DNA of 64,000 nucleotides from an uncultured Chloroflexia bacterium (GCA_963748625.1 CAVVJT010000007.1:192001-256000), one strand, 5' to 3'. Shown: positions 20,741 through 42,859, counted from the stretch's first letter. Made by a program: numbers and translations. Notes: generated by a model not told the origin, from the sequence alone.

Positions 20741-21518
20741 GTGAGCGAGAGGATCCGCGTGATGGTGAGGCTGCAGTTCTTCGGCACCGCGGGCTACCGG
20801 ATCGTGACCGACTCAGGCGCGACGGTCCTGATCGACCCCTACCTCGACCAGAACGCGGTCTGCCCGATCAAGGCCGCGGACCTCGACTCCGCCGACGTGC
20901 TCCTGATCACCCACAACGCGTATGACCACTTCGGCGATGCGCCGGCCATCATCAAGCGGCTCCGCCCGCTCGTCGTCTGCGCGAAGGACGTCGCCCACAC
21001 GCTGACCAGCGTCCACGATGTGGACCCGGAGCTGATCCGGGTCACGATCTGGGGCCTCCAGATGGAGGTTGCCGGCGTCCGGATCCTGCCGCTCCCGAGC
21101 GCGCACTGGTCCTTCGGCGTCACCCCCACCGGGGAGCTGCTCTCGGGCCCGGCGGTCGGATACCTCGTCGATGCCGGGCCGGGCGTCCGCATCTACCACC
21201 CCGGCGATTCGGCCATCACGACGGACATGCGGCTGTGGGGTGAGCTCTACCGGCCCACCGTGGGCCTGATGGTCATGGCCCTGCCTGAGCTGTCGCTCCC
21301 GCACATGGAGTGCTACCGCTCAGGGCGAGACCACGCCGTACGAGGCCCTCCTGGCCAGCCAGTGGCTGGGCCTCGAGCACGTCGTCACCAGCCACTATCA
21401 AAGCCCGGATCACCCCGATGTCCAGGCCTTCCTGCGACTCGCGGAGGCGACGGCTGAGGCCAAGGGCTATGCGCCCAGGATCAGCGTCCTGCGGGCCGGT
21501 GATGAGATCGATCTCTAG
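20741..21518 (+). CDS. Metallo-beta-lactamase-fold hydrolase (UPF0173/UlaG-like), frameshift near 21325
   Basis: LIDPY, ITHNAYDH, SAH and IYHPGDS; the shifted frame continues ETTPYEA...VTSHY to a TAG at 21516-21518. Confidence 0.8.
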
Positions 21519-21563
21519 GCACGCTGCAATCCCCATTCGCACGCAGTAGAAAGGGCGTCCTGC

Positions 21564-22640
21564 ATGTCGCGAAGAGTCACGCTGGAGGAGTCCTGCGTCG
21601 CTGTCGAGCAGTTCGAGGGCGAGACCGCCGAGCCGCTCCAGGCTCCCGACGGGATGGCGGTCGAGGAGCAGCTCGAGATCTACCGGAAGATGCGCCTCAT
21701 CCGGGAGTTCGACGGCAGCGTCAAGGGGCTCTGGAAGCAGGACTTCATCTACGGGCTCGCGCACTCCTACGTGAGCGCGGAGGCCATCGGCGTCGGCGCC
21801 TGTGCGGCTCTCAGGCCGGATGACCTGATCACGTCGACCCACCGGGGGCACGGCCACACGATCGCCAAGGGTGGCGATCCGCGGCGGATGATGGCCGAGC
21901 TCATGGGCAAGGCGGCCGGCTACTGCGGTGGCAAGGGCGGCTCGATGCACATCGCGGCCGTGGACCTGGGCATGCTGGGCGCGACCGGGATCGTCGGCAG
22001 CGCGATGCCCATCGCGGTCGGGGCCGCGCTCACGGCCAAGACGCTCCAGCGCGACAACGTGACCGTCTGCTTCCACGGCGATGGGTCCACCAACCAGGGC
22101 GTCTGGCACGAGTCCATCAACCTCGCCGCAGTGTGGAACCTGCCGGTGATCTTCGTGTGCGAGAACAACCAGTGGGCGATCAGCCTGCCCTATGACCAGG
22201 CGTCCAAGAACCCGAGGGTGTCCGATCGGGCGGCGGGCTACGGCATCCCCGGCGTGACCGTCGACGGGTTCAACCCGTTCGCGGTCTACAACGCCGTGCG
22301 GATCGCGGCCGAGCGAGCCCGGGCGGGCGAGGGACCCACCCTCATCGAGGCCCGGTTCTACCGCTACATCGGCCACTTCGTCGCCGACGACGAGCGCTAC
22401 CGCGATACCAACTGCAACGTCCTGTGGGAGCGGTTCGACCCGCTCACCCGCATGGAGCGGTACCTCGTCGACTCCGGGACGGCGACCGAGGCGTGGATCG
22501 CGGAGGCGACCGCCGAGGCCCAGGCGATCGTTGCGGACGCGATCGAGTTCGCGAAGGCGGCGCCGGCGCCGGAGCCGGACACCCTGTACACGGGGATGTA
22601 CTCGCCGGAGTTCATGGAAGCCCAGGGGATCAAGCTGTGA
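21564..22640 (+). CDS. TPP-dependent dehydrogenase E1 alpha subunit (acetoin/pyruvate dehydrogenase-like)
   Basis: STHRGHGH, GKGGSMH, TPP motif GDG...ENNQW and RYIGH. The start codon is uncertain. Confidence 0.92.
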   Translation: MSRRVTLEESCVAVEQFEGETAEPLQAPDGMAVEEQLEIYRKMRLIREFDGSVKGLWKQDFIYGLAHSYVSAEAIGVGACAALRPDDLITSTHRGHGHTIAKGGDPRRMMAELMGKAAGYCGGKGGSMHIAAVDLGMLGATGIVGSAMPIAVGAALTAKTLQRDNVTVCFHGDGSTNQGVWHESINLAAVWNLPVIFVCENNQWAISLPYDQASKNPRVSDRAAGYGIPGVTVDGFNPFAVYNAVRIAAERARAGEGPTLIEARFYRYIGHFVADDERYRDTNCNVLWERFDPLTRMERYLVDSGTATEAWIAEATAEAQAIVADAIEFAKAAPAPEPDTLYTGMYSPEFMEAQGIKL

Positions 22641-23659
22641 CGGACATCCAGACGAGCGGCGCGGCCGCCGCCCCCGCCCTGGCGAAGACGCTGACCATCA
22701 AGCAGGCGATCAACGAGACGCTGTTCGAGGAGATGCGCCGCGATCCCACGGTCGTGATCCTCGGCTGCGATGTCGGCATCCGCGGCAACCCGTTCGGCGT
22801 GACCAAGGGACTCTACGAGGAGTTTGGAGCGGGCCGCGTGCTCGACACGCCGATCTCGGAGGCGGCCATCATCGGCAGCAGCCTCGGCGCCGCCGCCACC
22901 GGGCTGCGGCCGATCGCCGAGATCCTGTTCTCCGACTGGATCACCATCGGCATGGATCAGCTGGTCAACCAGGTGGCCAAGATCCGGTACATGTTCGGGG
23001 GTGCGATCAGCGTCCCGCTCGTGATCCGGGCCCCGGTAGGCGCCGGCGGCGGCCAGGCAGCCCAGCACTCGCAGTCGTTCGAGTCGTGGTTCAGCCACGT
23101 GCCGGGTCTCCAGGTCGTGATGCCGATCACGCCGTACGACGTCAAGGGCCTCCTCAAGACCTCGCTCCGGTCGAACGACCCGGTCCTCTTCTTCGAGCAC
23201 AAGCGCGGCTACGAGATCAAGGGCGAGGTGCCGCTGGAGGACTACACGATCCCGTTCGGCCAGGCGGCCATCGCCCGCACCGGCGCCGACGTGACGGTCG
23301 TCGCCATCTCGATCATGCGTCACAAGGCCATGGCGGCCGCGGCGGAACTGGCCGAGCAGGGCATCGAGTGCGAGGTCATCGACCCGCGGACGATCTACCC
23401 GTTCGACTACGACACGGTGCTTGCCTCGCTCGAGAAGACACATCGCCTCGTGGTCGTCCACGAATCCAATCGCCGGAGCGGCATCGGCGGCGAGATCGTG
23501 TCCCAGGTGGCGGAACGGGCGTTCCGGACGCTCCATGCCCCGCCGGTCATCGTCGCCGGGCTTGATGTTCCCATGCCCTACAACCGCACCCTCGAGTCCC
23601 TGGTCATCCCCAACGAGGAGCGGATCAAGCAGGCCGTTCTCACGGTGATGGCCGGGTAG
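22637..23659 (+). CDS. TPP-dependent dehydrogenase E1 beta subunit
   Basis: DTPISE, GLRPIAEI, QHSQS, DPVLFFEHK and EVIDPRT; the GTG overlaps the alpha stop. Confidence 0.93.
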   Translation: MTDIQTSGAAAAPALAKTLTIKQAINETLFEEMRRDPTVVILGCDVGIRGNPFGVTKGLYEEFGAGRVLDTPISEAAIIGSSLGAAATGLRPIAEILFSDWITIGMDQLVNQVAKIRYMFGGAISVPLVIRAPVGAGGGQAAQHSQSFESWFSHVPGLQVVMPITPYDVKGLLKTSLRSNDPVLFFEHKRGYEIKGEVPLEDYTIPFGQAAIARTGADVTVVAISIMRHKAMAAAAELAEQGIECEVIDPRTIYPFDYDTVLASLEKTHRLVVVHESNRRSGIGGEIVSQVAERAFRTLHAPPVIVAGLDVPMPYNRTLESLVIPNEERIKQAVLTVMAG

Positions 23660-23682
23660 CCGGCAGCGGCAAGGAGGAAGCG

Positions 23683-23961
23683 GTGGCAACCCTGTTCGCG
23701 ATGCCGAAGCTCGGCATGAACATGGAGGAGGGCGTCCTCGTCGGGTGGCTCGTGGCCGAGGGGTCCGAGGTCCGGACGGGCCAGCCCATCCTCGAGATCG
23801 AGACCGACAAGACGACGGTCGAGCTCGAGGCGACGGCAGACGGCGTGCTCGCCCGGATCGTCCGGGCCGCGGGCGACACCGTCCCGATCAACGGCGTCCT
23901 CGCGGTGATCCTCGCCCCCGGCGAGGCGCTGCCTGACGACATCCCGGACTCGGCCGTATGA
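23683..23961 (+). CDS. Stand-alone lipoyl-carrier domain protein
   Basis: MPKLG..MEEG and EIETDKTT (lipoyl Lys); 92 aa. Confidence 0.88.
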   Translation: MATLFAMPKLGMNMEEGVLVGWLVAEGSEVRTGQPILEIETDKTTVELEATADGVLARIVRAAGDTVPINGVLAVILAPGEALPDDIPDSAV

Positions 23962-24006
23962 CGGTTGTGCGTCGTGTCTCACCCCAGCCAGTGAACTGAG
24001 GCGAAG

Positions 24007-26227
24007 ATGACCTTGGACTCCGCGCCGGCGGTGGAGATCGCGGAAGGCCGCCGATCCGCCCTCGACTACCCCAACATCCGCGCCTGCGAGGTGCCGTCCA
24101 GCGAGCTTGCCGCCACGCCCAAGCGCACGCTGGCCCTCGGCCTGTTCATGATCCACACGATCCGCCTGTTCGAGCGATGGCTCCTTGACCATGCCGAGCT
24201 TGTCCACGGCCCACTGCACTCGAGCATCGGGCAGGAAGCGGTCGCGGTGGGCACGGCGCTGGCGCTGGAGCCGACGGATCGGATCACCTCGACGCATCGG
24301 GCCCATCACGACGTGCTGGCGAAGCTGATCGCCCACGCCGCACCCGCGGACTTCGACCCGGCGACGGCGACCGAGGTTCCGGCTGCGGTCCATGAGGCCG
24401 TCCTGCGGACGTTCGCCGAGATCCTCGGGCTCGAGCAGGGCCTCTGCGGCGGGCGGGGCGGATCGATGCACCTCGCCGACGTGGACGGCGGCGTCATGAC
24501 AAGCGCGATCGTGGGCGGCGGGATTCCCGTCTCCGCGGGTCAGGCCCTGGCGGCGAAGCTGCGCGGAAATGGGGGCGTCGCCCTCGCCTCATTCGGCGAC
24601 GGTGCGACCTCGATCGGGGCCTTCCACGAGGCGGCCGTGCTCGCCCGGGCCTGGAAGCTGCCAATGATCTTCCTGCTCGAGAACAACCAGTACTCGGTGG
24701 CGACGACCCTGCGCGAGACCGCCGGCTTCGAGGAGCTCGCGATCCGCTCCAGCGGCTACGACATGCCGGCGCTCATCGTGGACGGCATGGATCCGATCGC
24801 GGTACTGACAGCGATGACCGCGGCGCGCGCACGGGCCGTCCGCGAGGGCCCCGTGTTCGTCGAGGCGGTGACCTACCGCTACTACCACCAGAACGGGCCG
24901 CTGCCCGGCAGTGCGTTCAAGTACCGGACGAAGGACGAGGAGCGGCACTGGGCCACGCTCGACCCTGTCCAGGTCTTTCCCGCGGAAGCTGCTCGATGCC
25001 GGTCTGCTCGGCGCGGCCGAGGCCGACCGTGTCGAGGAGCTCGCCAGGTCGCTCGTCGCCGGCTGTGCGTCCGCGGTCACCGAGGAGACCGCCGACGGCC
25101 TGCGCATCCCGCCGTCGCTCTACCCATCGACAGCCGACGCGGGCCGGGGCCTGCTGGGTCCCGGCGTCACCGACGTGCCGCCCGACCTCCTCGACACGAC
25201 CCCCGTCGCCGGGGGCGCGGAGATCACCTACGGCGCGGCGGTCTCGGGCGTGATCGCTCGCTGGCTGGAGCGGGACCCCGAGGCGTTCGTCCTCGGGGAG
25301 GAGGTCGGCCACCTGGGCGGCGGCGTCATGGGGTTCACCAAGGGCGCCCTCGCAACGGCCCCGGAGCGGGTCCTCAGCACGCCCATCTGCGAGAACGGGT
25401 TCACGGGTGCCGCCTTCGGGGCGGCCCTCTCCGGGATGCACCCGATCGTGGAGTTCATGTACCCCGACTTCACGCTCGAAGCGGCCGACCAGCTGTTCAA
25501 CCACATCCCGAAGGCCCGCTACATGTTCGGCGGGATCCACCAGATCCCGCTCGTCGTGCGGACGCAGATCAGCCGTGGACGCGGCTACGGGCCCCAGCAC
25601 GGGTGCGACCCGGCGGCGCTGTTCGCGGTCTACCCCGGGTGGAGGGTCGCATCGCCGTCGACTGCGGCCGAGTATGTCGGGCTGTTCAACGCGGCCATGC
25701 TCAGCCGCGACCCTGTCCTGGTCATCGACGACCACCGCCTGACCAAGACCACGGCGGCGCTCCCGGCCGGGGGCATGGACCACGTCATCCCGCCGGGCAC
25801 GGCCCGCCTCGTGCGCGCTGGCCGCGATGCGACCGTCGTCGCCTGGGGCTACGGGCTCCAGCGGGTCCTGGCCGTGGCAGAGCGCCTGGACGCTGAGGGG
25901 ATCTCGGTCGAGGTCATCGACCCCCGCTGGCTGGACCGGGCCAGCTTCGACCGGGCGACGGTGCTGGCATCCGTTGCACGCACCGGGGGGCTGGTGATCG
26001 TCGAGGATGCCCAGCGCAGCCTCTCGATGGGCAGCCAGATCCTGGACTACCTGCTGCCGGACCTGTTCGAGCACCTGCGGACGGCGCCCATCCGGGTGAC
26101 CGGCGAGGACGTGTATTCACCGGTCTCGAAGCCGCTCGAGACGTTCGTCCACCTGCGCGACGAGAACGTCGAGGCGGGCATCCGGACGGTGACAACGGCG
26201 GCGACCGCCGGGAGGGCACGACGATGA
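24007..26227 (+). CDS. Fused E1 alpha/beta TPP-dependent dehydrogenase, frameshift near 24982
   Basis: Alpha part: HSSIGQE, GRGGSMH, GDG...ENNQY. Beta part in the second frame: STPICE, EFMYPDF, GPQH, EVIDPRWL. Confidence 0.85.
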
Positions 26228-26469
26228 GCGATCCGACGCGGCTCCGGATGCCCAACCTCGGGGCCGAGGCGACTGGCGGCACGATCGTCGCCTGGCTCCG
26301 GGCCGTCGGCGACGAGGTCGTCGCGGGCGAGGTGGTCGCCGAGATCGAGACCGAGAAGGCGACCGTCGAGCTCGAGGCGCCGGTCGCCGGGCGCATCTCC
26401 GAGATCACGCAGCCTGTCGGAGCGGAGGTCGCGGTAGGCGAAACGCTCGCGCTCATCGAGCCAGGGTGA
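26224..26469 (+). CDS. Stand-alone lipoyl-carrier domain protein
   Basis: MPNLG and EIETEKAT; 81 aa; translationally coupled to the fused E1. Confidence 0.88.
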   Translation: MSDPTRLRMPNLGAEATGGTIVAWLRAVGDEVVAGEVVAEIETEKATVELEAPVAGRISEITQPVGAEVAVGETLALIEPG

Positions 26470-26569
26470 CCAAGGCGGTCGAGCCGCTGCCACGCATCGC
26501 ATCCATCGCCGGGCCGAGGCCCGCGCGCAACTCCAGCAGCAGCACCAGACAGAAGAGGAGTACACGACG

Positions 26570-27193
26570 ATGGCTGATCTGACGGCACTGGGCAAGGCAA
26601 TCGAGGCCGGCGACCGAGCGACCGCTGTGGCGCTCACGAACGAGGCGCTCGAGACTGGCGTGCCGGCCCAGGAGATCCTCGACGCGATGACCGACGCGAT
26701 GGCGGTGACCGGCGTTCGGTTCCAGGCCAATGAGATCTTCGTGCCCGAGATGCTGATCGCCGCGCGCGCCATGAAGGAGGCGATGGCGGTCCTCGAGCCC
26801 GTGCTGGCAGGCGCCGGCATCAAGCCCGAGGTCACGGCCGTGCTCGGCACCGTGAAGGGCGACCTCCACGACATCGGCAAGAACCTCGTGGGCATGATGT
26901 GGAAGGGCGCGAACATCGCGGTGATCGACCTGGGCACGAACGTCCCCCCGGAGCGCTTCGGCGAGGCCGCCAAGGAGCACGGCGCCAAGCTGGTCGGGAT
27001 CTCCGCCCTGCTGACCACGACGATGGTCGGCATGAAGGACGCGGTGGACGCCATCCGGGCCCAGCAGCCCGACGCGAAGATCATCGTCGGCGGCGCGCCC
27101 GTCACCCCGGAGTTCGCCATGGAGATCGGGGCGGACGGATACGCGCCCGATGCCGGGGCTGCCGTGGATGTCGCGCACCAGGTACTGGCGTAG
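26570..27193 (+). CDS. Corrinoid (cobalamin-binding) methyl-carrier protein, MtaC/MttC-like
   Basis: Cap domain (EIFVPEML), then GTVKGDLHDIGKNLV (DxHxxG), SALLTTT and IIVGGAP. Confidence 0.95.
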   Translation: MADLTALGKAIEAGDRATAVALTNEALETGVPAQEILDAMTDAMAVTGVRFQANEIFVPEMLIAARAMKEAMAVLEPVLAGAGIKPEVTAVLGTVKGDLHDIGKNLVGMMWKGANIAVIDLGTNVPPERFGEAAKEHGAKLVGISALLTTTMVGMKDAVDAIRAQQPDAKIIVGGAPVTPEFAMEIGADGYAPDAGAAVDVAHQVLA

Positions 27194-27255
27194 TCGAAGC
27201 AGCCCGACCCAGCTGGCGCCCGAGGGTCACGCACCCTCGGGCTGGAAGGACGTCC

Positions 27256-28389
27256 ATGAATTCCAAGCAACGCGTCATCGCCGCGCTCGAGCACCGCGAG
27301 CCGGACCGGGTTCCGGTCGGCGAGATGGCCATCGACTTCGAGCTCACCCAGTTCGCGCTCGGTCGGCCGACCCTGTACCGCTCCAAGTGGAACGAGTACA
27401 TGGCCCTGTGGAACGGCCGACGCGACGAGATCGTTGCGAGCTACGGTCGCGACATCGTCGATCTCGTGCGCCATTACGACCTGGACTACCTCTCGATCCC
27501 CCTTGCGCCCGCGAGGCAGGCCACCTATGAGCCGCCGGAGTTCACCGGCGAGTACCAGTGGAAGGACAAGAACGGCCGCACCTGGCAGTACTCGCCGGAG
27601 TCCGAGGGTCACGCCATGTGCATCGATCCGATCGACCTCACGGTCGACGACATCGTGATGCCTCCGGACCCTGCACCGGTCGACTGGTCGCGGCTGGAGC
27701 ACTTCGAGTACATCGTCAAGGAGCTCGGGCAGACGCACTTCATCATGGGCCGGGTGCCCGCGGGCCTGTTCCCGTGGCAGGAGACGCTCGGCAGCATCGA
27801 CGGCTTCCTGATCAAGATGTACGACGATCCCGAGTTCGTCGATCGGGCGGTCGAGGCCCAGACGCGCGAGGCGATCGCGTACGCGAAGGCGATGATCGAG
27901 ATCGGCTGCGACGCCGTCTCGCCCGACGGTGACGTGTGCGACAACCGCGGACCCACGATGGGTCCCGATCTCTTCCGCCGGTTCTGCCTTCCCTCGGTCG
28001 GGCGCCTGGCGGATGCCATCCACGCCGCGGGCGGCTGGGATGTCATGCACAGCGACGGGTACCTCTGGCCGATCCTCGACGACCTCGTGACGGCCGGCAT
28101 CGATGGCTGGCAGGGCATCCAGCCGCGCATCGGCATGGACATGAAGCTCCTCAAGGAGCAGTTCGGCGACCGGTTGTGCCTGTTCGGCGGCGTCGACATC
28201 GACACACTCGTGCTCGGCAGCCCGGATGACGTCGCGGAGCAGGTCGACTACGCGATCACCCACGCGGCCGCGGGCGGCGGGCTCGTCATCGGATCAGGCA
28301 ACACCATCATGCCCGGCGTCCGACCCGAGAACTTCCAGGCCATGCTGGACCGGACGCGCCGGAGCGGCGCCTACCCGGCTCACGGCTGA
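27256..28389 (+). CDS. Uroporphyrinogen decarboxylase-fold protein (putative corrinoid methyltransferase)
   Basis: MNSKQRV..ALEHREPDRVP, MHSDG, LKEQFGDRLCLFGGVD and GGGLVIGSGN. Confidence 0.85.
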   Translation: MNSKQRVIAALEHREPDRVPVGEMAIDFELTQFALGRPTLYRSKWNEYMALWNGRRDEIVASYGRDIVDLVRHYDLDYLSIPLAPARQATYEPPEFTGEYQWKDKNGRTWQYSPESEGHAMCIDPIDLTVDDIVMPPDPAPVDWSRLEHFEYIVKELGQTHFIMGRVPAGLFPWQETLGSIDGFLIKMYDDPEFVDRAVEAQTREAIAYAKAMIEIGCDAVSPDGDVCDNRGPTMGPDLFRRFCLPSVGRLADAIHAAGGWDVMHSDGYLWPILDDLVTAGIDGWQGIQPRIGMDMKLLKEQFGDRLCLFGGVDIDTLVLGSPDDVAEQVDYAITHAAAGGGLVIGSGNTIMPGVRPENFQAMLDRTRRSGAYPAHG

Positions 28390-29737: not shown

Positions 29738-30139
29738 ATGACCATGGAGACAGCACAGCGGTCCGCCGTTCCGGTTGTCAGGCTGCCGGGCCGTGACATC
29801 CAGCGGATCATCGGCAAGGACGCCTTCCTTGCCAGCGGCCGCATGACCGTGGGGACCGCGCACTACTCGGACGGCGCGGGCCCGATGGAACCCCACCAGC
29901 ACGCCGAGGAGTGCATCGTGGTCCTGGAGGCGCGGGGGGCGCGGGTCCGGTATGGGCCCACTCCCGACGACCTGCCCACGGTGATCAACCTCGAGGCCGG
30001 CCTGGTGCTCCACATCCCGGAGCTCGAGTGGCACGTCTTCGAGTGGGATGCGGGTGGCCATGCCGACTGCCTCGTCATCTACGGCCAGGTCGACAACATC
30101 CGGCCGGAGGACATCCAGCAGGCGCAGGCTGCCGGCTGA
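29738..30139 (+). CDS. Cupin domain protein
   Basis: PHQHAEE...EWH metal-binding pattern. Confidence 0.75.
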   Translation: MTMETAQRSAVPVVRLPGRDIQRIIGKDAFLASGRMTVGTAHYSDGAGPMEPHQHAEECIVVLEARGARVRYGPTPDDLPTVINLEAGLVLHIPELEWHVFEWDAGGHADCLVIYGQVDNIRPEDIQQAQAAG

Positions 30140-31110: not shown

Positions 31111-31150
31111 CCGGGTGGACCAGAGAGCCAGGACACCCAGAGGGACCCAC

Positions 31151-32191
31151 ATGACCGACTACTTCAGCCGCCTCGTCTCGGAAACCCCATCCAGGGTCTG
31201 GGTCAACAACCCGACCGAAGAGGAGATGGGACTCGCGCTTGCCGCCGGAGCCGTCGGTGCGACGACGAACCCGGCGTATGGCGGAGGTCTCCTCCGGCGC
31301 TCGCCGGGCGAGGTCATCCCCGTCGTGGACGCATGCCTGTCCGCCTCCGATGACGACCGGGTGGTCGCCGATCTCGTCCAGCAGCGCCTCGTCGCCCGGA
31401 TCACCGCCCGCTTCCGGCCGCTCTTCGAGTCATCGGGCGGCACGGCCGGCTTCGTCTCGATCCAGGGGTCGCCGGAGACCGACGTGGACGGGGAGATCAT
31501 CTGGGAGGAGGCCGAGGCCGGCCACGCGATCGCTCCGAACGCGACGCCCAAGATCCCCGCCACCCTGCCCGGGTTCGTCGCCATGGAGCGGGTTGTCGAG
31601 CACGGCTGGCCGATCATCGTCACCGAGGTGTTCTCGCTCGACCAGGTTGAGGCCGCGTGCGAGCTCTATCTCCGCGTGACGGCCCGGACGGGCGTGCGCA
31701 GCCCGTTCTTCATGAGCCCCATCACCGGCATCCTGGGCGACCACCTCAAGAAGCTGGCGAAGGCCCAAGGCCTTGACGTGCCGGTCCGGGCCATGGATCT
31801 CGCCGGCATCGGCCTGTCGCGGCGCTGCGCCGCCCTGGTCGCCGAGCGCAACTACCCGGTGACGCTCCTGTTCGGTGGTGCCCGCATTCCGGAGGATCTC
31901 ACCGGGCTCATCGGCGCCGCGCACCATGCCACCATCAACTGGTCGACGTTCGCCGAGATCCGGGCGGCGAATCCGCCGATCGAGCGCACGATCACCGAGC
32001 CGTTCGACCCAGAGCTCGAGCGGCTGCTGCTCGACACCTTCCCCGATGTCTGGAAGGCCTGGGAGCTCGGCAGGCTCGCGCCCGAGGAGTTCGAGGCGTT
32101 CGGGCCGGTCCAGCACTTCCGGGACAACTTCCTCGCCGGCTGGAACGGCGTGCTCGCGATGATTGCCGAGCGCCGGGTGGCGGCCGGCTAG
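31151..32191 (+). CDS. Transaldolase family protein with a non-canonical active site
   Basis: TTNP and Schiff-base KIPAT present; WVNN, VSIQG and IVTEVFS replace the usual motifs. Confidence 0.82.
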   Translation: MTDYFSRLVSETPSRVWVNNPTEEEMGLALAAGAVGATTNPAYGGGLLRRSPGEVIPVVDACLSASDDDRVVADLVQQRLVARITARFRPLFESSGGTAGFVSIQGSPETDVDGEIIWEEAEAGHAIAPNATPKIPATLPGFVAMERVVEHGWPIIVTEVFSLDQVEAACELYLRVTARTGVRSPFFMSPITGILGDHLKKLAKAQGLDVPVRAMDLAGIGLSRRCAALVAERNYPVTLLFGGARIPEDLTGLIGAAHHATINWSTFAEIRAANPPIERTITEPFDPELERLLLDTFPDVWKAWELGRLAPEEFEAFGPVQHFRDNFLAGWNGVLAMIAERRVAAG

Positions 32192-32200
32192 ACAGGATCG

Positions 32201-32231
32201 CGTAACCCCCGGGTCATGCCCGGGGGTTACG
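32201..32231. terminator. Hairpin between convergent genes
   Basis: CGTAACCCCCGGG-TCATG-CCCGGGGGTTACG, a 13-bp perfect stem. Confidence 0.7.
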
Positions 32232-33081
32232 GAGCCGCGACGAGCCGCTGGCGCTGGCGCCCCAGGCCGGTGACCCCGAGCTCGACCACATCGCCCGGCC
32301 GCAGGAACGGCTTGTCCGGGTGGCCCATCGCCACGCCGGGGGGCGTGCCCGTGTCGATGATGTCGCCTGGCTCGAGCACGATGTACTGGCTCAGATGGCG
32401 GATGATCTGGGCGACCCCGAAGACCAGCGTCCCGGTGTTGCCGGTCTGACGCCGCACCCCGTTGACGTCGGTCCACAGGTCGAGGTTGGCGGGGTCGGAC
32501 ACCTCGTCCGGCGTCACGAGCCACGGACCGGCCGGGTTGAAGGTCTCGCACGACTTGCCCTTGGTCCACTGGGTGCCACGCTCGAGCTGGAACTCCCGCT
32601 CGGAGACGTCGTTGCAGACCATGTACCCGGCAACGGCCGCCTGCGCCTCCTCGTCCGTGTCGAGATAGCGGCAGGTCTGGCCGATCACGACGCCAAGCTC
32701 CACCTCCCAGTCGGTCTTCAGCGATCCGCGCGGAATCCGGACATCGTCATACGGTCCCGAGATCGCGTTGGACGACTTGATGAAGAAGATCGGCTCGGGC
32801 GGGAGGGCCAGGCCAGCCTCCGCCGCATGGTCGGCGTAGTTGAGGCCGATGCAGAAGATGTTGCCCGGGCGCGCGACGGGAGCTCCGAGTCGGATCCCCT
32901 CGAGGTCGACCACCGGACCGGCGCCCGCGGCGACGATCGGCCGCAGCGCATCGATCCCACCGCCGGCGAAGAAGGCCCGGTCGAAGTCCCTGACGTGATC
33001 GCCCACGTCGAGTGCGTGCTGGTCGTCGACGAGCACCCCGGGGCGTTCCGCACCTGCGGGCCCGAAGCGGACGAGCCTCAT
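32227..33081 (-). CDS. Fumarylacetoacetate hydrolase family protein
   Basis: CIGLNYADH, DWEVELG, NDVSER, KGKS and TGTPPGV. Confidence 0.92.
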   Translation of the reverse strand: MRLVRFGPAGAERPGVLVDDQHALDVGDHVRDFDRAFFAGGGIDALRPIVAAGAGPVVDLEGIRLGAPVARPGNIFCIGLNYADHAAEAGLALPPEPIFFIKSSNAISGPYDDVRIPRGSLKTDWEVELGVVIGQTCRYLDTDEEAQAAVAGYMVCNDVSEREFQLERGTQWTKGKSCETFNPAGPWLVTPDEVSDPANLDLWTDVNGVRRQTGNTGTLVFGVAQIIRHLSQYIVLEPGDIIDTGTPPGVAMGHPDKPFLRPGDVVELGVTGLGRQRQRLVAAP

Positions 33082-33123
33082 GAGTGGCCTCCTCGTGTCA
33101 CGGCTGACATGGTCGAGCCACGG

Positions 33124-33645
33124 TCACCCGTGGTCGGGGCGCGTCGCGGCGTCCCCCTGGATGGGCCCGGTCGCCGGCTTGGCGCCGCGCCGGTAGACAA
33201 GAACGCTGCGCTCGTACTCGATGACGGTCTCGTTGCGCTGGTTGTAGCCTCGGGTGCGCACCCGGACGAGACCCTGTGTCGGCCGGCTCTTCGACGGCCG
33301 GGTCTCGAGGACTTCCGATTCGGCGTAGATCGTGTCGCCTGCGAAGACCGGGTTGGGCAGCCGGACGGCATCCCAGCCCAGGTTGGCAACGGCGTTCTGG
33401 CTCACGTCGGCCACGGAGAGCCCGGTCACGATCGCCAGGGTCAGCGTGCTCACCACGAGCGGGCGTCCGAACTCGGTCCGTGCCGCATAGTCCGCGTTGT
33501 AGTGGACCGGGTGGGGGTTGTTGGTCAGCAGCGTGAACCAGGTGTTGTCCGTCTCCGTGATGGTCCTGCCGTACGGGTGACGGTAGAGATCCCCCACCAC
33601 GAAGTCCTCGAAGTAGCGGCCATCCCAGCCGGGCACCACGGGCAT
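33124..33645 (-). CDS. MaoC family (hot-dog) acyl-CoA hydratase/dehydratase
   Basis: GRYFEDF.VG, RTITETDN..F...T.N.HPVH and PVFAGDT. Confidence 0.9.
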   Translation of the reverse strand: MPVVPGWDGRYFEDFVVGDLYRHPYGRTITETDNTWFTLLTNNPHPVHYNADYAARTEFGRPLVVSTLTLAIVTGLSVADVSQNAVANLGWDAVRLPNPVFAGDTIYAESEVLETRPSKSRPTQGLVRVRTRGYNQRNETVIEYERSVLVYRRGAKPATGPIQGDAATRPDHG

Positions 33646-33661
33646 TGCGTGCCTCCTCTCC

Positions 33662-34930
33662 TCAGCCGGCGGCCGACCGCGCGTCATCGAGCTCGTCCGC
33701 GCTGATCACACCGAGCGCCGCCGCACGTGACGGGTCGAACCGGCCGGCCGCGACGGCCCTCCGCAGCAGCGCCCGGGCGTGGCGGTCCGTCGCGCGGTCC
33801 GCCATCGTGCCGCCGATCATGGTGGCGCCCTTCCCTTCCTCCTCGACGGCGGCCCGGTACACCCCGAGCGCCGCGACGGCCTCCTCCAGGGCAGGAGCGC
33901 CGGTCGGGCCATCGAACGCCAGCAGGGTGGCGAACAGCTGCGCCGGATGCCCGACCCACTTGCCGGTCATGCCCAGGTCGCGCGCGCGGAGGGCGTCACG
34001 GTGGCAGAGCGCCATGCGCTCGAGGAACCGCTCCCGGTTGGCCTCCGCATCCAGGGACGGGTCCGCGACGGGATAGGCAAGCGTCATGCCATCCAGCGAT
34101 GGGACGCCCACCGCGCCCGCGACGTTGACGATCTCCGCACGCACCCAGTCGGCGATCGGGTGATCGATGGCAATCTCGGGCAGCCCGAGGTCCGCCGAGT
34201 AGTCCGCCAGCCCATAGACCAGTGAGGCGAGCCGCGGGGCGGCTCGGCGGGCGATCTCCGGGAGCTGCGCCGCACACCAGCCCGACTCCACGAGGAACCC
34301 GACCCGGATCCGACGTACCGGCAGCGACAGCGCATCCTCGACCTCGTCGAGGATGGCGTAGAGGACGTCGACCTCCTCCGGGTGGTCCACCTTGGGGAAG
34401 ATGATCCCGTCGACGGGATAGGTCGCCGGGTCGCCGGTCGAGGCGGCGAGAAGGACGGCGACCAGGTCGGCGCCCGCGCCGGCGAGACCGAAGCCTGGTG
34501 GTCGGTAGAAGCGGAGCGTGGTTCCCCACGCGGCGGTCCTGAGCGTGAGGCCGGCCACCCGCCGGGCTTCAGCCCGCGTGTCCTCGCGCTGGGCGGTCGC
34601 GTCCTCCCCGTCGAGCATCACCAGGGGTGCCCGGCGCGGCGCCGCGAGCAGCGCGGCGACCCGGTCCGTCGGCACGTCCAGGCGGTCAGCCAGCTCCGCG
34701 GGCTCGATCCGCCAGCGCTCCATGAGCCGCGCGGTGGCAGCCGTTCCACCCTCGACGGCCTTCCGGGCCATGGACTCGTTGTCGGCCGGTGTCGTGAAGT
34801 GCGCCTGCTGGCGCCAGTAGCGCAGCGGCAGGTCCGTGACCCGGTCCGCGACGGATGCCCTGAGAGCGGCGATCCGCGCCTCGGCGGATGTCGCGAGCGC
34901 CGTCTCCATGTCCCGGTCCGCAGGGCTCAC
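33662..34930 (-). CDS. CitE/malyl-CoA lyase-like (HpcH/HpaI aldolase-citrate lyase family) protein
   Basis: LDGEDA, FPKV, LVES, GLADYSADLG, GMTGKWVGHPAQ and MADRA. Confidence 0.82.
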   Translation of the reverse strand: MSPADRDMETALATSAEARIAALRASVADRVTDLPLRYWRQQAHFTTPADNESMARKAVEGGTAATARLMERWRIEPAELADRLDVPTDRVAALLAAPRRAPLVMLDGEDATAQREDTRAEARRVAGLTLRTAAWGTTLRFYRPPGFGLAGAGADLVAVLLAASTGDPATYPVDGIIFPKVDHPEEVDVLYAILDEVEDALSLPVRRIRVGFLVESGWCAAQLPEIARRAAPRLASLVYGLADYSADLGLPEIAIDHPIADWVRAEIVNVAGAVGVPSLDGMTLAYPVADPSLDAEANRERFLERMALCHRDALRARDLGMTGKWVGHPAQLFATLLAFDGPTGAPALEEAVAALGVYRAAVEEEGKGATMIGGTMADRATDRHARALLRRAVAAGRFDPSRAAALGVISADELDDARSAAG

Positions 34931-36399
34931 TCTGCAGCGTCCTCGAACAGGCCGCGCACGAGCTCGATCGCGGTGTCCCGGATGATCCCGGCGACCGCCG
35001 GATCGAACGGCGCCGGATGGCCGTACCCGCGATGGGAGACTGCGGGCTCATACCCCCCGAACGGGTATTCCTCGGGCGTCGCCACGTACCCGAGAACGCC
35101 CTGGCAGTAGCCGGCAAAGATGGTGGTCGCGGCGGGCGACGCGGCCCGGACGGCAGCCCCGATCTCGCTGAAGATCTCGCCGGGTGCGCCGACAATGGCG
35201 CAGTCACCCACGCGCGCCGCCCAGATCTCGCCGTCGAGCGCCTCGTCCAGCGTACCCGCCCGTGCCCCGGCGAGCGTCTGCTGGAGCCAGGCGATGTGAT
35301 ACGCGATCGGGTTGGTGACCTCCCGACCGGCGCCTTCCGCCCTCCTGCCGGCCAGGCCTGCCTGCCGTTCTGCCAGCTCGGCCGCGAGCGCCTCGGCCGA
35401 GGGAGTCGCCAGGAGCGGAAGCCGGACGATGCGCCTTACGCTGGCCAGCGGCTGGGACATCTGGTCCTCGGCCACCCGGCGCCGGTACAGGCTGATGGGC
35501 GTGACCGACCCGTAGGCGATGTGGTCGATCGTGGAACGCCAGGGCTCGACGTCGGCGACGGCATGGGCGGCTTCAAGGGCCAGCCGATGGCCCATCGGCT
35601 CGTCGTCCGCCGCGTCCTCGCCGAACGCCTCGAGCGGCAGCACGTTCCCCGCCGCACCCTGTAGGAACAGGGTCGTTCCTCCGCCCAGGGGCCCATCCAG
35701 CCGCTCCCGCAGGGGACCGACGAAGTCGGATCCCACCAGGGGAACCTCTGGTCCGACGGTGACCGGGTGGCACCCGAAGCCAACCAGCGTGGCGATCGGC
35801 CGAGACCGTCGGCGCTCAGGCCTCGCGTCGATGCGCACGGTGGGCACCTCGTCGTCGAGGAATCCGTCCGGGTTCCAGCCCAGGATCGTGCGCCCATCCG
35901 GCGTCCGCTCGCGGCGGTTGACGGCGATGCCGGGGGCCCGTCCGGTGGCACCCGCGACGCGCGCCTCGACCAGTCGGTCGGCCGCCTGGACGGCTGCGGA
36001 GGCATACAGGGCGGGTACCTGGTCCCACCACCCACGCTCGACGTCGGTCCACCCGTCGAACTCCCCGCCCATCTTGATCGTGGCACCGGGCCAGGGCGCG
36101 GCGTGGGAGTGACTCGAGTTGAGGAGCACCTGCTCGGGCGTGCAGCCCACGGCCCGGGCCACCACGCCCCGGATCCGGTCCGCCATGGGCGTCGTGAGGC
36201 CCGTCACGTCGCCCGTGATGATGACCAGCGTCGTCGGGCCGGACTGCAGGACCACGGCCCGCGCCTGCAGTGGGGAGTGGACCCGGCGAGGCGCCGTCGC
36301 CCGCCGGACATAGCCGAGCACGTCGACCGGCAGGGGCGGGGTGATGTCGACGACCGCCGCGCCCGCGAGCATCGTGCCCCCGGGGGTGCCAGGGCTCAT
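34927..36399 (-). CDS. Neutral/alkaline ceramidase-like metallo-amidase
   Basis: VDITPP, SHSHAAP, CHP, QGAAGN, GEIF and GYV....YPFGGYE. Confidence 0.78.
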   Translation of the reverse strand: MSPGTPGGTMLAGAAVVDITPPLPVDVLGYVRRATAPRRVHSPLQARAVVLQSGPTTLVIITGDVTGLTTPMADRIRGVVARAVGCTPEQVLLNSSHSHAAPWPGATIKMGGEFDGWTDVERGWWDQVPALYASAAVQAADRLVEARVAGATGRAPGIAVNRRERTPDGRTILGWNPDGFLDDEVPTVRIDARPERRRSRPIATLVGFGCHPVTVGPEVPLVGSDFVGPLRERLDGPLGGGTTLFLQGAAGNVLPLEAFGEDAADDEPMGHRLALEAAHAVADVEPWRSTIDHIAYGSVTPISLYRRRVAEDQMSQPLASVRRIVRLPLLATPSAEALAAELAERQAGLAGRRAEGAGREVTNPIAYHIAWLQQTLAGARAGTLDEALDGEIWAARVGDCAIVGAPGEIFSEIGAAVRAASPAATTIFAGYCQGVLGYVATPEEYPFGGYEPAVSHRGYGHPAPFDPAVAGIIRDTAIELVRGLFEDAAE

Positions 36400-37127
36400 G
36401 CCAGCGGCGACCCTTCCGGCGGACCTGCCTCGAACAGTGAGGCCGGCTGCTCCAGGGAGGCCTTGAGGTCCGCGAGAAACCGGGCCGCTGCTGCGCCATC
36501 CACCGCCCGGTGATCCGCCGACAGCGTCGCGGTCATCACCCGTCGCACCGTGACGACGCCGTCGCGGACAACGGCTCGCTCGGCGGCGCGTGCCGTGGCC
36601 AGGATCGCCACCTGGGGCGGAACGACGATCGCGGTGAAGCTGTCGATCGGGAACATGCCGAGGTTGGACAGGGTGAACGTCGCGTCGGTCAGCTCGACCG
36701 CGCGCAGGCGCTTCGCGCGCGAGCGCGTCACAAGATCCCGCAGCGCGACAGCAGCCGCGTCGAGGTCGAGTCCGCCGCAGTCGAGCAGGGCGGGCGCGAT
36801 CAGGCCGTCAGGCAGGTCCACCGCGATCCCCACGTTGACCGCGTCGACGAGCTCGAGCACCTCGCCGTTCCAGACCGCATTGAAGGCCGGGTGGGCGCGG
36901 AGCGCGGCGGCGAGTGCGACCACGAGCGCTGCTGTGACGCTCACCCGGTCCTCGCGCTCGCGACCCTCGTTGTGCGCCGCGAGGGACGCGAGGAGCGCAT
37001 CCATCTCGATGTCGGCGGACTCGTAGAAGTGGGGCGCCTGCTGCTTGGACGCGGTCATGCGCTGCGCGATCGCCTTGCGCATGGAGGTGAAGACCACCGG
37101 GTGGCGGCCCGGTCCGGGTTCGCTCAT
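36396..37127 (-). CDS. 2-oxoacid dehydrogenase E2 acyltransferase, catalytic domain only
   Basis: MRKAIAQRM..SK..APHF, TFTLSNLG and catalytic DHRAVDG; no lipoyl or E3-binding domain. Confidence 0.88.
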   Translation of the reverse strand: MSEPGPGRHPVVFTSMRKAIAQRMTASKQQAPHFYESADIEMDALLASLAAHNEGREREDRVSVTAALVVALAAALRAHPAFNAVWNGEVLELVDAVNVGIAVDLPDGLIAPALLDCGGLDLDAAAVALRDLVTRSRAKRLRAVELTDATFTLSNLGMFPIDSFTAIVVPPQVAILATARAAERAVVRDGVVTVRRVMTATLSADHRAVDGAAAARFLADLKASLEQPASLFEAGPPEGSPLA

Positions 37128-37133
37128 CGTGCG

Positions 37134-37379
37134 CTACGCCCCGTCATCGAGGTACCCGATGATCTCGCCGACCGGCACGTCGGAGCCCGCATCGTGGACG
37201 ATCTCCACGAGGGTCCCGGCGTCGATGGCTTCCATGTCCACGGTCGCCTTGTCGGTCTCGACCTCGGCCAGGACATCGCCGCGGCGGACCGCGTCGCCAA
37301 CCTGCTTGGACCAGGAGGCGATGCGGCCGGACTCCATGTCGTAGCCGAGGTTCGCCATTGCAATCGGGATCCGTGCCAT
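37134..37379 (-). CDS. Stand-alone lipoyl-carrier domain protein
   Basis: MANLGYDMESG and EVETDKAT; start after GGGAGG. Confidence 0.88.
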   Translation of the reverse strand: MARIPIAMANLGYDMESGRIASWSKQVGDAVRRGDVLAEVETDKATVDMEAIDAGTLVEIVHDAGSDVPVGEIIGYLDDGA

Positions 37380-37442
37380 CGGGCCTCCCACTCGGTGTGC
37401 CGCTGAACCCGGTTCCCGGAGCCGCCGTGGGACCGGGCGGGC

Positions 37443-37456
37443 TGCAAAGGTTTCCA
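37443..37456. promoter_or_regulatory. LacI-type operator, copy 1
   Basis: TGCAAAGGTTTCCA, just downstream of a minus-strand -10 (TATCAT, 37460-37465). Confidence 0.6.
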
Positions 37457-37506
37457 GCCATGATAGCGGACAGGGCGCCGCTGGGCGACGCTCGTCGCGC
37501 ACCGAA

Positions 37507-37534
37507 TTGCCGGATTGCCCGATTGCCCTACAAC
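37507..37534 (+). promoter_or_regulatory. Degenerate GntR-type promoter/operator, copy 4
   Basis: TTGCCG-GATTGCCCGATTGCCC-TACAAC, same 16-nt spacing. Confidence 0.55.
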
Positions 37535-37610
37535 ATGCTAGGTTCTGCCCAGCGAGGGCGCGGCCAGGCGAGAGCACCCCACCGTCCTGCGGCGACGCCA
37601 GGGAGGACAG

Positions 37611-38633
37611 ATGCCGACATCCGCGGAGCGGGTGGCCACCGCGCTCCGGGGCGAGCAGCCCGATCGTGTGCCCTACTGCGAGGTGTACCTCAGCCGCGCG
37701 TTCGCCGCGCCGCTGATGGGCTGGTCGCCGACCGCCGCCCACACCAACTTCGAGGAGAACGAGTTCTCGCTCGATGAGGCGAAGGCCGTCGCGGAACGGC
37801 TCGGCATGGACAACATCACGTATGTCCTGCGGGCTCCCGTCTACGCGGACAAGGAGTACGGGCAGGAAGGCACGCTGTTCTACGGCAGGGGCCAGATCGC
37901 CACGCAGGCGGACCTGGCGATGGTCCGCCTGCCGGACCCCACCGACCCTGCCCTGTACACCGAGGCTGCGGCGTTCGCAGCCGGCAAAGGCCCCTTCTCC
38001 GCCTGGTTCATCACGCGGATGGGGATCTCGCCCGCCATGCTGAGCATGGGGATCGAGTCGTTCTGCCTCGCCCTGTACGACGATCTGCCGCTGATCGAGC
38101 GGCTCCTGGACCTGTACGTGGACTGGGCGGAGGCGGTCGCCGAGCGCATCTGCGGGCTTGGCTTCGACGTGTTCGTCACCACCGACGACATCGCCCACGG
38201 GACCGGCCCGTTCTTCTCGCCGCGCGTCTTCCGCGAGCTTGTCCGCCCGCGCCTGGAGCGCCTCGCCCGCAAGATCACGATCCCCTGGCTGTTCCACAGC
38301 GACGGCGACGTGACCTCGTTCCTCGACGACCTGGTCGAGGTCGGCATCACGGCGATCCAGCCGGTCGAGCCACGGGCGATGGACATCCGCGCCGTGAAGC
38401 GAAGGTACGGAGACCGGCTGTGCCTGTGCGGCAACGTGGACATGGACCTCCTCGCCCGGGGAACCACAGGTGACGTCGACCGGACGGTGCGCGAGCTGAT
38501 CCGGGACATCGCTCCCGGTGGCGGGTACATCGTGACGAGCGGCAACAGCCTGGCCCACTACTGCCGCCCCGAGAACGCACAGGCCATGGCGGCGGCCGTC
38601 AGGCGCTATGGGACCTACCCGATCGCCGGCTGA
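37611..38633 (+). CDS. Uroporphyrinogen decarboxylase-fold protein (putative corrinoid methyltransferase)
   Basis: TSAERV..ALRGEQPDRVP, DDIA, FHSDG, YGDRLCLCGNVD and PGGGYIVTSGNS. Confidence 0.87.
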   Translation: MPTSAERVATALRGEQPDRVPYCEVYLSRAFAAPLMGWSPTAAHTNFEENEFSLDEAKAVAERLGMDNITYVLRAPVYADKEYGQEGTLFYGRGQIATQADLAMVRLPDPTDPALYTEAAAFAAGKGPFSAWFITRMGISPAMLSMGIESFCLALYDDLPLIERLLDLYVDWAEAVAERICGLGFDVFVTTDDIAHGTGPFFSPRVFRELVRPRLERLARKITIPWLFHSDGDVTSFLDDLVEVGITAIQPVEPRAMDIRAVKRRYGDRLCLCGNVDMDLLARGTTGDVDRTVRELIRDIAPGGGYIVTSGNSLAHYCRPENAQAMAAAVRRYGTYPIAG

Positions 38634-42857: not shown

Positions 42858-42859
42858 GC

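Follow-up and report, generated by a model that had tools for sequence, protein, structure and literature searches.

A candidate regulon combining a corrinoid methyl-transfer module with a dispersed lipoyl-dependent dehydrogenase in an uncultured Chloroflexia bacterium

What brings a B12-dependent methyl-transfer module into the same gene run as thiamine diphosphate- and lipoyl-dependent dehydrogenase components, in surroundings that look devoted to sugar catabolism? The question is raised by a 64,000-nucleotide stretch of DNA from an uncultured Chloroflexia bacterium (GCA_963748625.1, CAVVJT010000007.1:192001-256000), analyzed here at its full length and called the window, in which the genes of interest, hereafter the island, center on positions 20741 to 38633. 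The answer we favor, with roughly even confidence, is a repressor-controlled regulon of an aerobic soil Chloroflexota, in which a corrinoid methyl-transfer unit and a dispersed dehydrogenase would serve one or more imported monosaccharide-like compounds.

The window covers positions 192001 to 256000 of contig C7 in an assembly of 4.63 Mb and 10 contigs, with a G+C content of about 70%. Because of this high G+C content, genes were called by codon-position GC, and they were named with Pfam and NCBIfam profiles. In what follows, L-numbers designate the neighborhood loci compared, G-numbers genomes (G000 being the genome under study), and C-numbers its contigs. The nearest loci for island genes came from metagenome-assembled genomes (MAGs) of Chloroflexia, Chloroflexota, or Limnocylindrales. 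The genome carries a gene for a haem-copper oxidase (COX1), indicating that the organism is able to respire oxygen. No RNA run carrying this genome was found among the sequencing runs searched, and shares in matching runs were at most 0.20.

A preliminary description of the window had reported one same-strand run of genes behind the strongest operator, and this picture was borne out. Pfam and NCBIfam profiles gave the same plus-strand order, namely, a metallo-beta-lactamase-fold (MBL) hydrolase, E1 alpha, E1 beta, a lipoyl protein, a fused E1, a second lipoyl protein, a corrinoid protein (Corr), two UroD-fold proteins (UroD_A and UroD_B), a cupin-like protein, a GarR-like reductase, and a transaldolase. 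Just before the MBL gene, the perfect palindrome ATTGTCCTACAAT (20681-20693) overlaps a promoter-like element, TTGACG-16-TACAAT (20666-20693, plus strand), whose -10 element sits within the palindrome. Since this was the sole promoter-like site found on the plus strand between 20500 and 32400, and terminator-like sites in that interval were not above expectation (2 found versus 2.0 expected), a single transcript running from the MBL gene through the transaldolase-like gene is plausible.

The same operator ties the run to genes on either side. With at most one mismatch, ATTGTCCTACAAT occurs at 6 sites in the whole 4.63-Mb genome, every one inside the window, and the consensus ATTGTCCTACA(A/G)T has 6 near-exact copies in the genome, all within the island. 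When up to three mismatches are allowed, 9 matches at 8 places were counted in the window, compared with an expectation of 1.59; none of 100 shuffles reached 9. Copies with one mismatch lie before sugar transporter 1 (13012-13024, plus strand) and 76 bases before the start of UroDlikeD, a further UroD-fold candidate (19755-19767, minus strand), while a variant with two mismatches (37522-37534, plus strand) lies between the divergent operons of a third lipoyl protein and of UroD_C. Plus-strand copies also precede transporter 2 (40070-40082), a second Amidohydro_2 gene (49159-49171), and a pair formed by a GFO dehydrogenase gene and an apionate-lactonase-like gene (52147-52159); a possible copy with two mismatches at 60331 may have a mutarotase-domain gene downstream. 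Divergent from the run stands a gene for a GntR/FCD-family regulator (19854-20583, minus strand), recovered by tblastn with its L107 orthologue, whose helix-turn-helix domain (GntR, 5.6e-14) and FCD domain (3.7e-17) lie in two frames with a frame change near 20296. This regulator is likely the repressor acting on the operator.

At the heart of the B12 module is the corrinoid protein (26570-27193, plus strand), which comprises an N-terminal helical cap (B12-binding_2, PF02607, 5e-19) and a Rossmann B12-binding domain (B12-binding, PF02310, 5.5e-27), with the motif DLHDIG at residues 98-103. This DxHxxG motif was invariant in 17 of 17 aligned relatives. The protein scored below all named equivalog cut-offs (161.3 bits versus 370 for MtgC_2 and 144.6 versus 215.3 for TIGR02370); judged from its sequence, it is a corrinoid carrier, though not a named MtgC, MtbC, or MtaC equivalog.

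Up to four UroD-fold proteins could act with this carrier. A match to the URO-D profile (PF01208) places UroD_A, UroD_B, and UroD_C in the (beta/alpha)8 UroD fold. UroD_A (27256-28389, plus strand; 8.7e-25) and UroD_C (37611-38633, plus strand; 4.1e-25) are MtaA-like: MtaA/CmuA is the best NCBIfam family for the former and among the best three for the latter, at scores (76.2 and 58.9 bits) below the TIGR01463 cut-off of 235.4. The closest solved relative of UroD_A by sequence is PDB 4ay7 (5.8e-13), and in their alignment the HxC and later C of MtaA are replaced by HSD and N; an HSD motif was also recognized by eye in UroD_C. UroD_B (28437-29672, plus strand; 8.5e-10) is more divergent and had no NCBIfam match. 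It carries an invariant H-x-D-G-E-N, and the Cys of HCDG is Ala in 2 of 5 relatives. As for UroDlikeD (18357-19679, minus strand), the window protein had no Pfam or NCBIfam match; its family has an invariant GCC motif and a marginal URO-D match (E = 0.018) in 1 of 8 members. An AlphaFold model for this family (pLDDT 74, pTM 0.78) had UroD, MtaA, and MetE as best matches (TM 0.39-0.48 on the query), and in Foldseek its top 20 matches were UroD or MtaA, giving moderate support for a UroD fold in UroDlikeD. The preliminary description had placed operator-bearing UroD-fold genes at both 18357 and 37611. The latter stood, with its URO-D match and an operator of two mismatches; the former has a fold predicted by modeling, an operator with one mismatch, and a real extent of 18357-19679.

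UroD_B provided a link to the carrier. A search of 1.84 billion representatives returned 95 relatives of UroD_B at E 1e-30 or better. Among the 150 matches listed, 11 were at least 480 aa long, and 7 of these 11 had a C-terminal part 44-49% identical to the corrinoid protein. A model of the complex of Corr with UroD_B scored 0.75, compared with 0.01 for the best of three controls; the mark applied to such models is attained by 58 of 80 solved complexes and by 2 of 110 mismatched pairs. The modeling runs agreed in at least 50% of contacts, pLDDT of the partner was at least 89, and the predicted interface takes in the DxHxxG loop. Complexes of the corrinoid protein/UroD-fold kind have been solved, and part of the 0.75 score may be likeness to these. 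UroD_B is thereby predicted to pair physically with the corrinoid protein.

Gene neighborhoods point the same way. We compared loci within a radius of 10 kb around three anchors: the corrinoid gene (the best 80 of 445 relatives, several of these loci being merely 2-6 kb long), the fused E1 gene (24 loci), and UroD_A (18 loci). A UroD_A-like gene was present in 34 of the 80 corrinoid-anchored loci, UroDlikeD in 8, and UroD_B in 1, while UroD_A orthologues of at least 70% identity always stood beside a corrinoid gene. In both L131 and L132, orthologues of the three proteins Corr, UroD_A, and UroD_B (70-86% identity) are encoded side by side, and L132 has UroD_C as well, at 70%; L002 and G006 each carry a UroD_B homologue (53%) in the neighborhood of a corrinoid gene. 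That the UroD-fold proteins are instead decarboxylases or other non-B12 enzymes, with the corrinoid protein as a bystander or sensor, strikes us as barely credible: UroD itself is a decarboxylase, and corrinoid genes are missing from the surroundings of many distant UroD_A relatives, but the natural UroD_B-corrinoid fusions, a complex model that passes its controls, the unfailing proximity of close UroD_A orthologues to a corrinoid gene, and the frequency of UroD_A-like genes in corrinoid loci all argue otherwise. Taken together, the conserved gene set, the fusions, and the complex model support a real methyl-transfer module formed by the corrinoid and UroD-fold proteins, as had been proposed at the outset.

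Such proteins are abundant in some relatives. In the five genomes that carry L105, L106, L107, L109, and L112 (G061-G065, 2.2-4.2 Mb), 8-17 UroD_A-like matches were counted per genome, a large UroD-fold expansion.

From where would the module draw its activator and its methyl acceptor enzyme? A tblastn search of the window with 11 same-genome paralogues (E 1e-3) detected no RACE, pterin-binding, or MttB gene, in agreement with the preliminary description, which had seen neither a RACE activator nor a pterin-binding methyltransferase in the island. The genome-wide search that it had suggested did turn up such partners: alongside 8 corrinoid proteins, 11 MTTB, and 11 URO-D matches, the genome contains 3 RACE genes (above the Pfam cut-off) and 6 Pterin_bind matches, 5 of which adjoin corrinoid paralogues. 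One pterin-binding paralogue is located at C10:1364707-1365330. The presence of these genes elsewhere in the genome makes it plausible that activator and acceptor enzyme are supplied in trans. Among the 80 related corrinoid loci, 38 had RACE and 22 a pterin-binding gene within 10 kb.

Other corrinoid clusters of the same genome differ in composition. One paralogous cluster (C10:1.366 Mb) consists of a corrinoid protein, a UroDlikeD paralogue, one open reading frame (ORF), and a pterin-binding gene. In another, a CUT2 sugar-type ABC transporter is interleaved with two corrinoid genes, a UroD gene, and a pterin-binding gene. Paralogous clusters of this sort (L127:6557-10709 and L130:4705-12379, one of them the cluster with the transporter) differ from the window in having a pterin-binding gene, and they lack the island operator. 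Separately, one of the 11 MTTB matches (G000:C10:990047-991399) contains a single in-frame TAG, which might point to a trimethylamine methyltransferase of the pyrrolysine type, to a pseudogene, or to an assembly error.

The dehydrogenase module has an unusual layout. The MBL-fold hydrolase that opens the run (20741-21457; Pfam) is also the first gene in 8 related loci. It is followed by E1 alpha (21564-22640) and E1 beta (22637-23659), which Pfam, NCBIfam, and PDB matches assign to one thiamine diphosphate enzyme of the PDH/acetoin/BCKDH type, then by a stand-alone lipoyl carrier of 92 aa (23683-23961; ETDK, Biotin_lipoyl 8.7e-19), a fused E1 alpha-beta (24007-26227; frame change at about 24979-24982, with an intact 738-aa orthologue at L104:9029-11245), and a second carrier of 81 aa (26224-26469; ETEK, 2.3e-19), all on the plus strand. 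Two further components, absent from the preliminary description, lie in a minus-strand operon divergent from UroD_C: a third lipoyl carrier of 81 aa (37134-37379; ETDK, 4.1e-18) and an E2 acyltransferase of 243 aa made up of its catalytic domain only (36396-37127; 2-oxoacid_dh 8.2e-70, residues 12-232). The ET(D/E)K lysine motif is retained in each of the lipoyl proteins, and both E1 sets contain E1_dh, Transket_pyr, and Transketolase_C. The island E2 has no lipoyl domain, no E3_binding domain was found, and no E3 was present among the ORFs scanned (8.4-64 kb of the window). No E1 score reached an equivalog cut-off; the best models were PDH E1 types, mostly with scores below cut-off (330.9 versus 393.85 for E1 alpha), and E1 beta exceeded just the broad subfamily model NF006667 (349.5 versus 321). 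The split E1ab-Lip-core-only E2 layout recurs in L104 and L108, a full E2 is found in the relative L018, and the dispersed dehydrogenase, with its free lipoyl carriers, core-only E2, fused E1, and MBL hydrolase, is kept in at least 9 related loci.

Is the island intact? Compared with intact orthologues, one frame change each was found in UroDlikeD (near 19330), the GntR/FCD gene (near 20296), and the fused E1 gene (near 24979). Three single changes clustered within 7 kb could mean that the island is decaying, the regulator, fused E1, and UroDlikeD being real pseudogenes of a pathway that no longer works, an explanation that we rate as quite improbable. An independent short-read contig (235 letters, differing at 4 other letters, depth 5.1) has one base fewer at 24982, which restores the fused E1 frame, and codon-position GC stays gene-like on either side of each change. 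Moreover, the E1ab frames of L105 and L107 are also shorter than the 738 aa of L104, suggesting frame breaks there as well, as expected from homopolymer errors. The three changes are probably homopolymer errors of the assembly, one of the three (24982) having been compared with reads. An ORF-based annotation of this genome would split genes at such homopolymer indels.

The preliminary description had taken the B12 and thiamine diphosphate/lipoyl genes to be a unit, and it is here that it had to be revised. Synteny was recovered in one relative, L131, in which the whole cluster is colinear at 61-92% identity, minus-strand operon included, and it was absent from seven loci with the E1 genes alone and from L132 with the B12 genes alone. 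In L132, the order is Amidohydro_2, transporter 1, Corr, UroD_C, UroD_A, an SMP-30 lactonase, UroD_B, cupin, reductase, and two transaldolase genes, with no E1 genes beside this B12 operon; the E1ab-Lip-E2 genes of the same MAG lie on another contig (L108). Corr, UroD_A, and UroD_B thus travel with the cupin, reductase, and transaldolase genes, all at 70-89% identity, in both L131 and L132. Conversely, the block of MBL, E1 alpha, E1 beta, Lip, E1ab, and Lip was present at 47-83% identity in 7 of the 24 fused-E1-anchored loci (L103, L105, L106, L107, L109, L112, and L118, with one member undetected each in L103 and L112), and a corrinoid or UroD match was found in none of the 24. The operator type is common to all of these arrangements: it precedes the MBL gene in the seven E1-only loci and in L131, and the transporter in L132. 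We read these patterns as two modules of one regulon type, combined in this lineage and separable elsewhere, with the B12 genes as the accessory part.

The same patterns could reflect two unrelated pathways joined by a recent insertion, the E1/lipoyl genes serving an unmethylated sugar or keto acid and the B12 module, with its cupin, reductase, and transaldolase, some other substrate, so that co-transcription would be mechanistically meaningless. We consider this doubtful, if well worth weighing. Modules that stand apart in most relatives, a patchy distribution in the family, and an L132 B12 unit that forms its own operon with cupin, reductase, and transaldolase behind a transporter speak for it. 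Against it, the operator type stays with either module even where they stand apart, with the B12 unit in L132 and with the E1 unit in L103 to L118; in this genome the operator is confined to the island; and L131, a second species, preserves the full arrangement. Furthermore, in 6 of the 7 E1-only loci a transaldolase homologue (45-61%) is encoded on the opposite strand, indicating that the modules share parts.

The idea that the lipoyl proteins serve as methyl acceptor or cobalt reductant was dropped, because the lipoyl/E1 block is present in many genomes without any B12 genes. A different association of the two kinds of genes was seen in L004:1479-10621 and L009 (Chloroflexia/Actinomycetota MAGs), which encode UroD, P450, a class IV aminotransferase, GntR/FCD, E1 alpha, E1 beta, a lipoyl match, an MttB-family protein, and a corrinoid protein; this composition suggests demethylation of an N-methylated amino acid, followed by transamination and oxidative decarboxylation. 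In L018, a UroD gene, a carrier, an SDR, and a full E2 adjoin the E1 genes.

What, then, would the regulon act on? The island had been described as sugar-catabolic, and CUT2 transporters together with sugar and sugar-acid enzyme types all around support a monosaccharide or sugar-acid catabolic regulon. Transporter 1 (13118-16990, plus strand) is a CUT2-type sugar ABC transporter with a Peripla_BP_4 binding protein, a BPD_transp_2 permease, and a double ATPase, 53-58% identical to the set that precedes the B12 genes in L132. The binding proteins of transporters 1 and 2 are encoded at 13118-14257 and 40165-41319, respectively. An Amidohydro_2 hydrolase (17385-18275, minus strand; Pfam 2.5e-35) weakly resembles L-fucono-1,5-lactonase (NCBIfam 83 bits versus a cut-off of 400). 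The run itself ends with a small cupin-like protein (29738-30139), a GarR/HIBADH-family reductase (30190-31110) that clears the tartronate semialdehyde reductase cut-off (TIGR01505, 364.8 versus 340.75 bits), and a divergent transaldolase/FSA-family protein (31151-32191; TAL_FSA 6.6e-13), all on the plus strand. The name cupin, as first given, has the backing of language-model look-alikes, which are cupins, and of orthologues 82-88% identical that follow UroD_B in L131 and L132, though not of the Cupin_2 profile, whose match is below cut-off (E = 0.0053, 16.9 bits). On the minus strand, the operon of Lip3 and the core-only E2 continues with a protein of weak neutral-ceramidase N-terminal likeness (34927-36399; 32.9 bits), an HpcH/CitE-like acyl-CoA lyase with DUF6986 (33662-34930; Pfam, NCBIfam), a RipB/Ich-like MaoC hydratase (33124-33687; Pfam, NCBIfam), and an FAH-family hydrolase (32227-33081) closest to 2,4-didehydro-3-deoxy-L-rhamnonate hydrolase (352 bits versus a cut-off of 500).

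The island also encodes a rhamnose mutarotase domain, and the B12 operon of L132 encloses an SMP-30 lactonase. None of the hints to sugar families (rhamnonate diketo hydrolase, fucono-lactonase, apionate lactonase, and rhamnose mutarotase) reaches its equivalog cut-off; together they suggest deoxy or branched sugars, naming none. Two other routes were considered. An inositol pathway, suggested by a GFO dehydrogenase, a xylose-isomerase-like barrel, and the cupin, was not supported, with IolG scores of 56.6 and 24.9 bits versus 355 and no IolE or IolB match. A sulfoquinovose transaldolase route (isomerase, transaldolase, YihU-type reductase) was dropped, the reductase reaching 190 bits versus 348 for sulfolactaldehyde reductase.

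A further possibility, which we hold to be rather unlikely, is that the B12 module demethylates an imported donor other than a sugar, such as a methylthio compound, a methoxylated acid or aromatic, or a small methylated alcohol, or that one UroD-fold protein works on the acceptor side and methylates a thiol, as MtaA/MtsA and mlp-type systems do. According to PMC10418091, known UroD-fold enzymes act on methoxy-aromatics, methylthiols, and coenzyme M (CoM), and the presence of three to four UroD-fold proteins per carrier with no folate methyltransferase in the cluster is reminiscent of type 1 mlp. Against this, the zinc-thiolate ligands of MtaA are missing in UroD_A and UroD_C, the two transporters belong to the monosaccharide CUT2 type, the surrounding enzymes are all sugar or sugar-acid types, and pterin-binding partners are plentiful elsewhere in the genome.

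Returning to the regulon for an imported monosaccharide-like compound, its parts can be arranged in the following tentative scheme. The CUT2 transporters would import the compound, and UroD_A, UroD_B, UroD_C, and UroDlikeD, or some of them, would move its methyl group onto the Co(I) of the carrier, the best-guess donor being an O-methylated sugar, sugar acid, or cyclitol. From the carrier, the methyl would pass to tetrahydrofolate via one of the five pterin-binding methyltransferases encoded beside corrinoid paralogues, and the carrier would be re-reduced by one of the three RACE activators encoded elsewhere. Dehydrogenases, lactonase-type hydrolases, the cupin, the GarR-type reductase, and the transaldolase-like enzyme would handle the carbon skeleton. 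The two E1 enzymes may then oxidatively cleave a keto intermediate and load the acyl group onto the free lipoyl carriers, from which the core-only E2 would hand it to CoA; the MaoC hydratase and the CitE-like lyase would split the acyl-CoA, and the FAH enzyme would cleave a 2,4-diketo-3-deoxy acid. That a methylated sugar is the substrate and that its keto product is cleaved by the thiamine diphosphate enzymes was already put forward in the preliminary description, and we infer it likewise. In its boldest form, this scheme would make the B12 module of an aerobic soil bacterium an O2-independent O-demethylase for methylated or branched sugars or cyclitols, with several specialized UroD-fold enzymes per carrier, feeding an undescribed route in which E1 enzymes resembling acetoin dehydrogenase cut a keto-sugar C-C bond onto free lipoyl carriers and the core-only E2 or the MBL hydrolase, as a thioesterase, unloads the acyl group; we put this forward as a speculative possibility.

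A number of observations weigh against the regulon as we read it. The E1/lipoyl block of the seven E1-only loci, out of 24, has no Corr or UroD match within 10 kb, and a UroD_A orthologue was found in none of the five genomes searched (those of L105, L106, L107, L109, and L112), in which the best identity was 29-33%. From the other side, E1 alpha, E1 beta, and Lip lie near the corrinoid anchor in just 3 of 80 loci (L004, L009, and L018); the corrinoid protein of L004 is partnered with an MttB-family enzyme rather than UroD, and a class IV aminotransferase stands beside the E1 genes there. Twelve of the 18 UroD_A-anchored loci (31-36% identity), several of them short, have no corrinoid gene nearby. 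UroD_B is rare: among 36 genomes of the genus one has it, and among 301 of the family five do, this genome counted. The island encodes neither a methyl acceptor enzyme nor an activator, UroD_A and UroD_C are without the zinc ligands of MtaA, and the Cys of UroD_B is not fully conserved. Three island genes, the regulator included, are frame-shifted in the assembly. The binding proteins are just distantly of the ribose type in a PDB sequence search, and the substrate cannot be read from them. Finally, we know of no characterized precedent for Co(I) cleavage of an aliphatic methyl ether, methanol activation excepted.

Downstream of UroD_C, the plus strand carries additional genes of the island. 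An ORF at 38679-39155, between UroD_C and an SDR gene (39182-39928; Pfam, NCBIfam), resembles VOC/glyoxalase proteins by language-model features alone (0.95) and is a lead. CUT2 ABC transporter 2 (within 40070-43933; Pfam) follows, and farther on come the second Amidohydro_2 gene (49159-50088) and a GFO/IDH/MocA dehydrogenase gene (52256-53323), both profile matches with an operator copy. After the latter, the ORF at 53101-55428, which has no Pfam match, aligned over nearly the whole ApnL model as a distant relative of D-apionate lactonase (198 bits versus a cut-off of 750); it possibly acts as a lactonase on a branched or unusual sugar. On the minus strand, 55445-56560 and 56747-57862 encode adjacent 371-residue paralogues, 37% identical and with gene-like codon bias, for which neither Pfam nor NCBIfam gave a match.

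If UroD-fold proteins do demethylate sugar-like compounds by way of a corrinoid carrier, their enzymology would be new for aliphatic methyl ethers, and an explanation would be at hand for the large UroD-fold expansions in soil Chloroflexota, where five relatives have 8-17 matches each, and for those in the sugar loci of other phyla. The island supplies one carrier, four candidate methyltransferases, two binding proteins, and a defined operator with which to work, and its dispersed dehydrogenase represents an unstudied build of 2-oxoacid/acyloin dehydrogenase. The full-text literature, with supplements and subscription journals outside its scope, yielded no description of a corrinoid/UroD system for sugars, nor of this lipoyl/E1 layout; the sole carbohydrate demethylase to surface in that search is reportedly a cytochrome P450.

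How does the island compare with known systems? Three-component O-demethylases combine a UroD-family methyltransferase I (OdmB/VdmB/MtvB), a corrinoid protein, a pterin-binding methyltransferase II, and an activating enzyme. The island resembles those of anaerobes in its DxHxxG carrier adjoining UroD-fold proteins and in a genome equipped with pterin-binding and RACE partners; OdmB and VdmB are also named in PMC10418091. The island differs in that its cluster holds neither methyltransferase II nor activator, the host has a haem-copper oxidase, and the context is one of sugars rather than aromatics. The methylcobamide:CoM methyltransferases MtaA/MtbA (4ay7) share the fold and include the best solved relative of UroD_A, whereas UroD_A and UroD_C reach 76 and 59 bits versus 235 and HSD and N stand in place of the MtaA HxC and C. 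Type 1 mlp clusters, as described in PMC10418091 (Kountz and Balskus), join several UroD-fold proteins to a single corrinoid protein in the absence of a folate methyltransferase, include a RACE gene, are reported from obligate anaerobes only, and are linked to methyl-sulfur or methyl-selenium metabolism. The island has the same combination of several different UroD-fold proteins, one carrier, and no folate enzyme, but lacks RACE and the zinc-thiol motif and belongs to an aerobic host and a sugar setting. Within Chloroflexota MAGs, Limnocylindria included, corrinoid methyltransferase genes are reportedly common as methylamine types, and mtv, mto, mts, and cmu types were not annotated in them (PMC11264602).

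Likewise, the dehydrogenase shares with the acetoin, pyruvate, and branched-chain 2-oxoacid dehydrogenase complexes a heterotetramer-type E1 alpha/beta, lipoyl domains with the lysine motif, and an E2 catalytic domain, and departs from them in its three separate lipoyl proteins, an E2 without lipoyl or E3-binding domain, one single-chain E1, and a leading MBL hydrolase. With the non-phosphorylative rhamnose/fucose and oxidative D-apiose pathways, the island has in common an FAH hydrolase, an Amidohydro_2 lactonase, an ApnL-like lactonase, a mutarotase domain, SDR/GFO enzymes, and CUT2 transport, whereas its matches are all below equivalog cut-offs; the ORFs scanned included neither an enolase-type dehydratase nor a RuBisCO-like protein. 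To our knowledge, no non-phosphorylative L-rhamnose/L-fucose or oxidative D-apiose pathway uses B12 or lipoyl enzymes. Set beside these systems, the island appears to be built from known kinds of parts, with a real chance of new chemistry.

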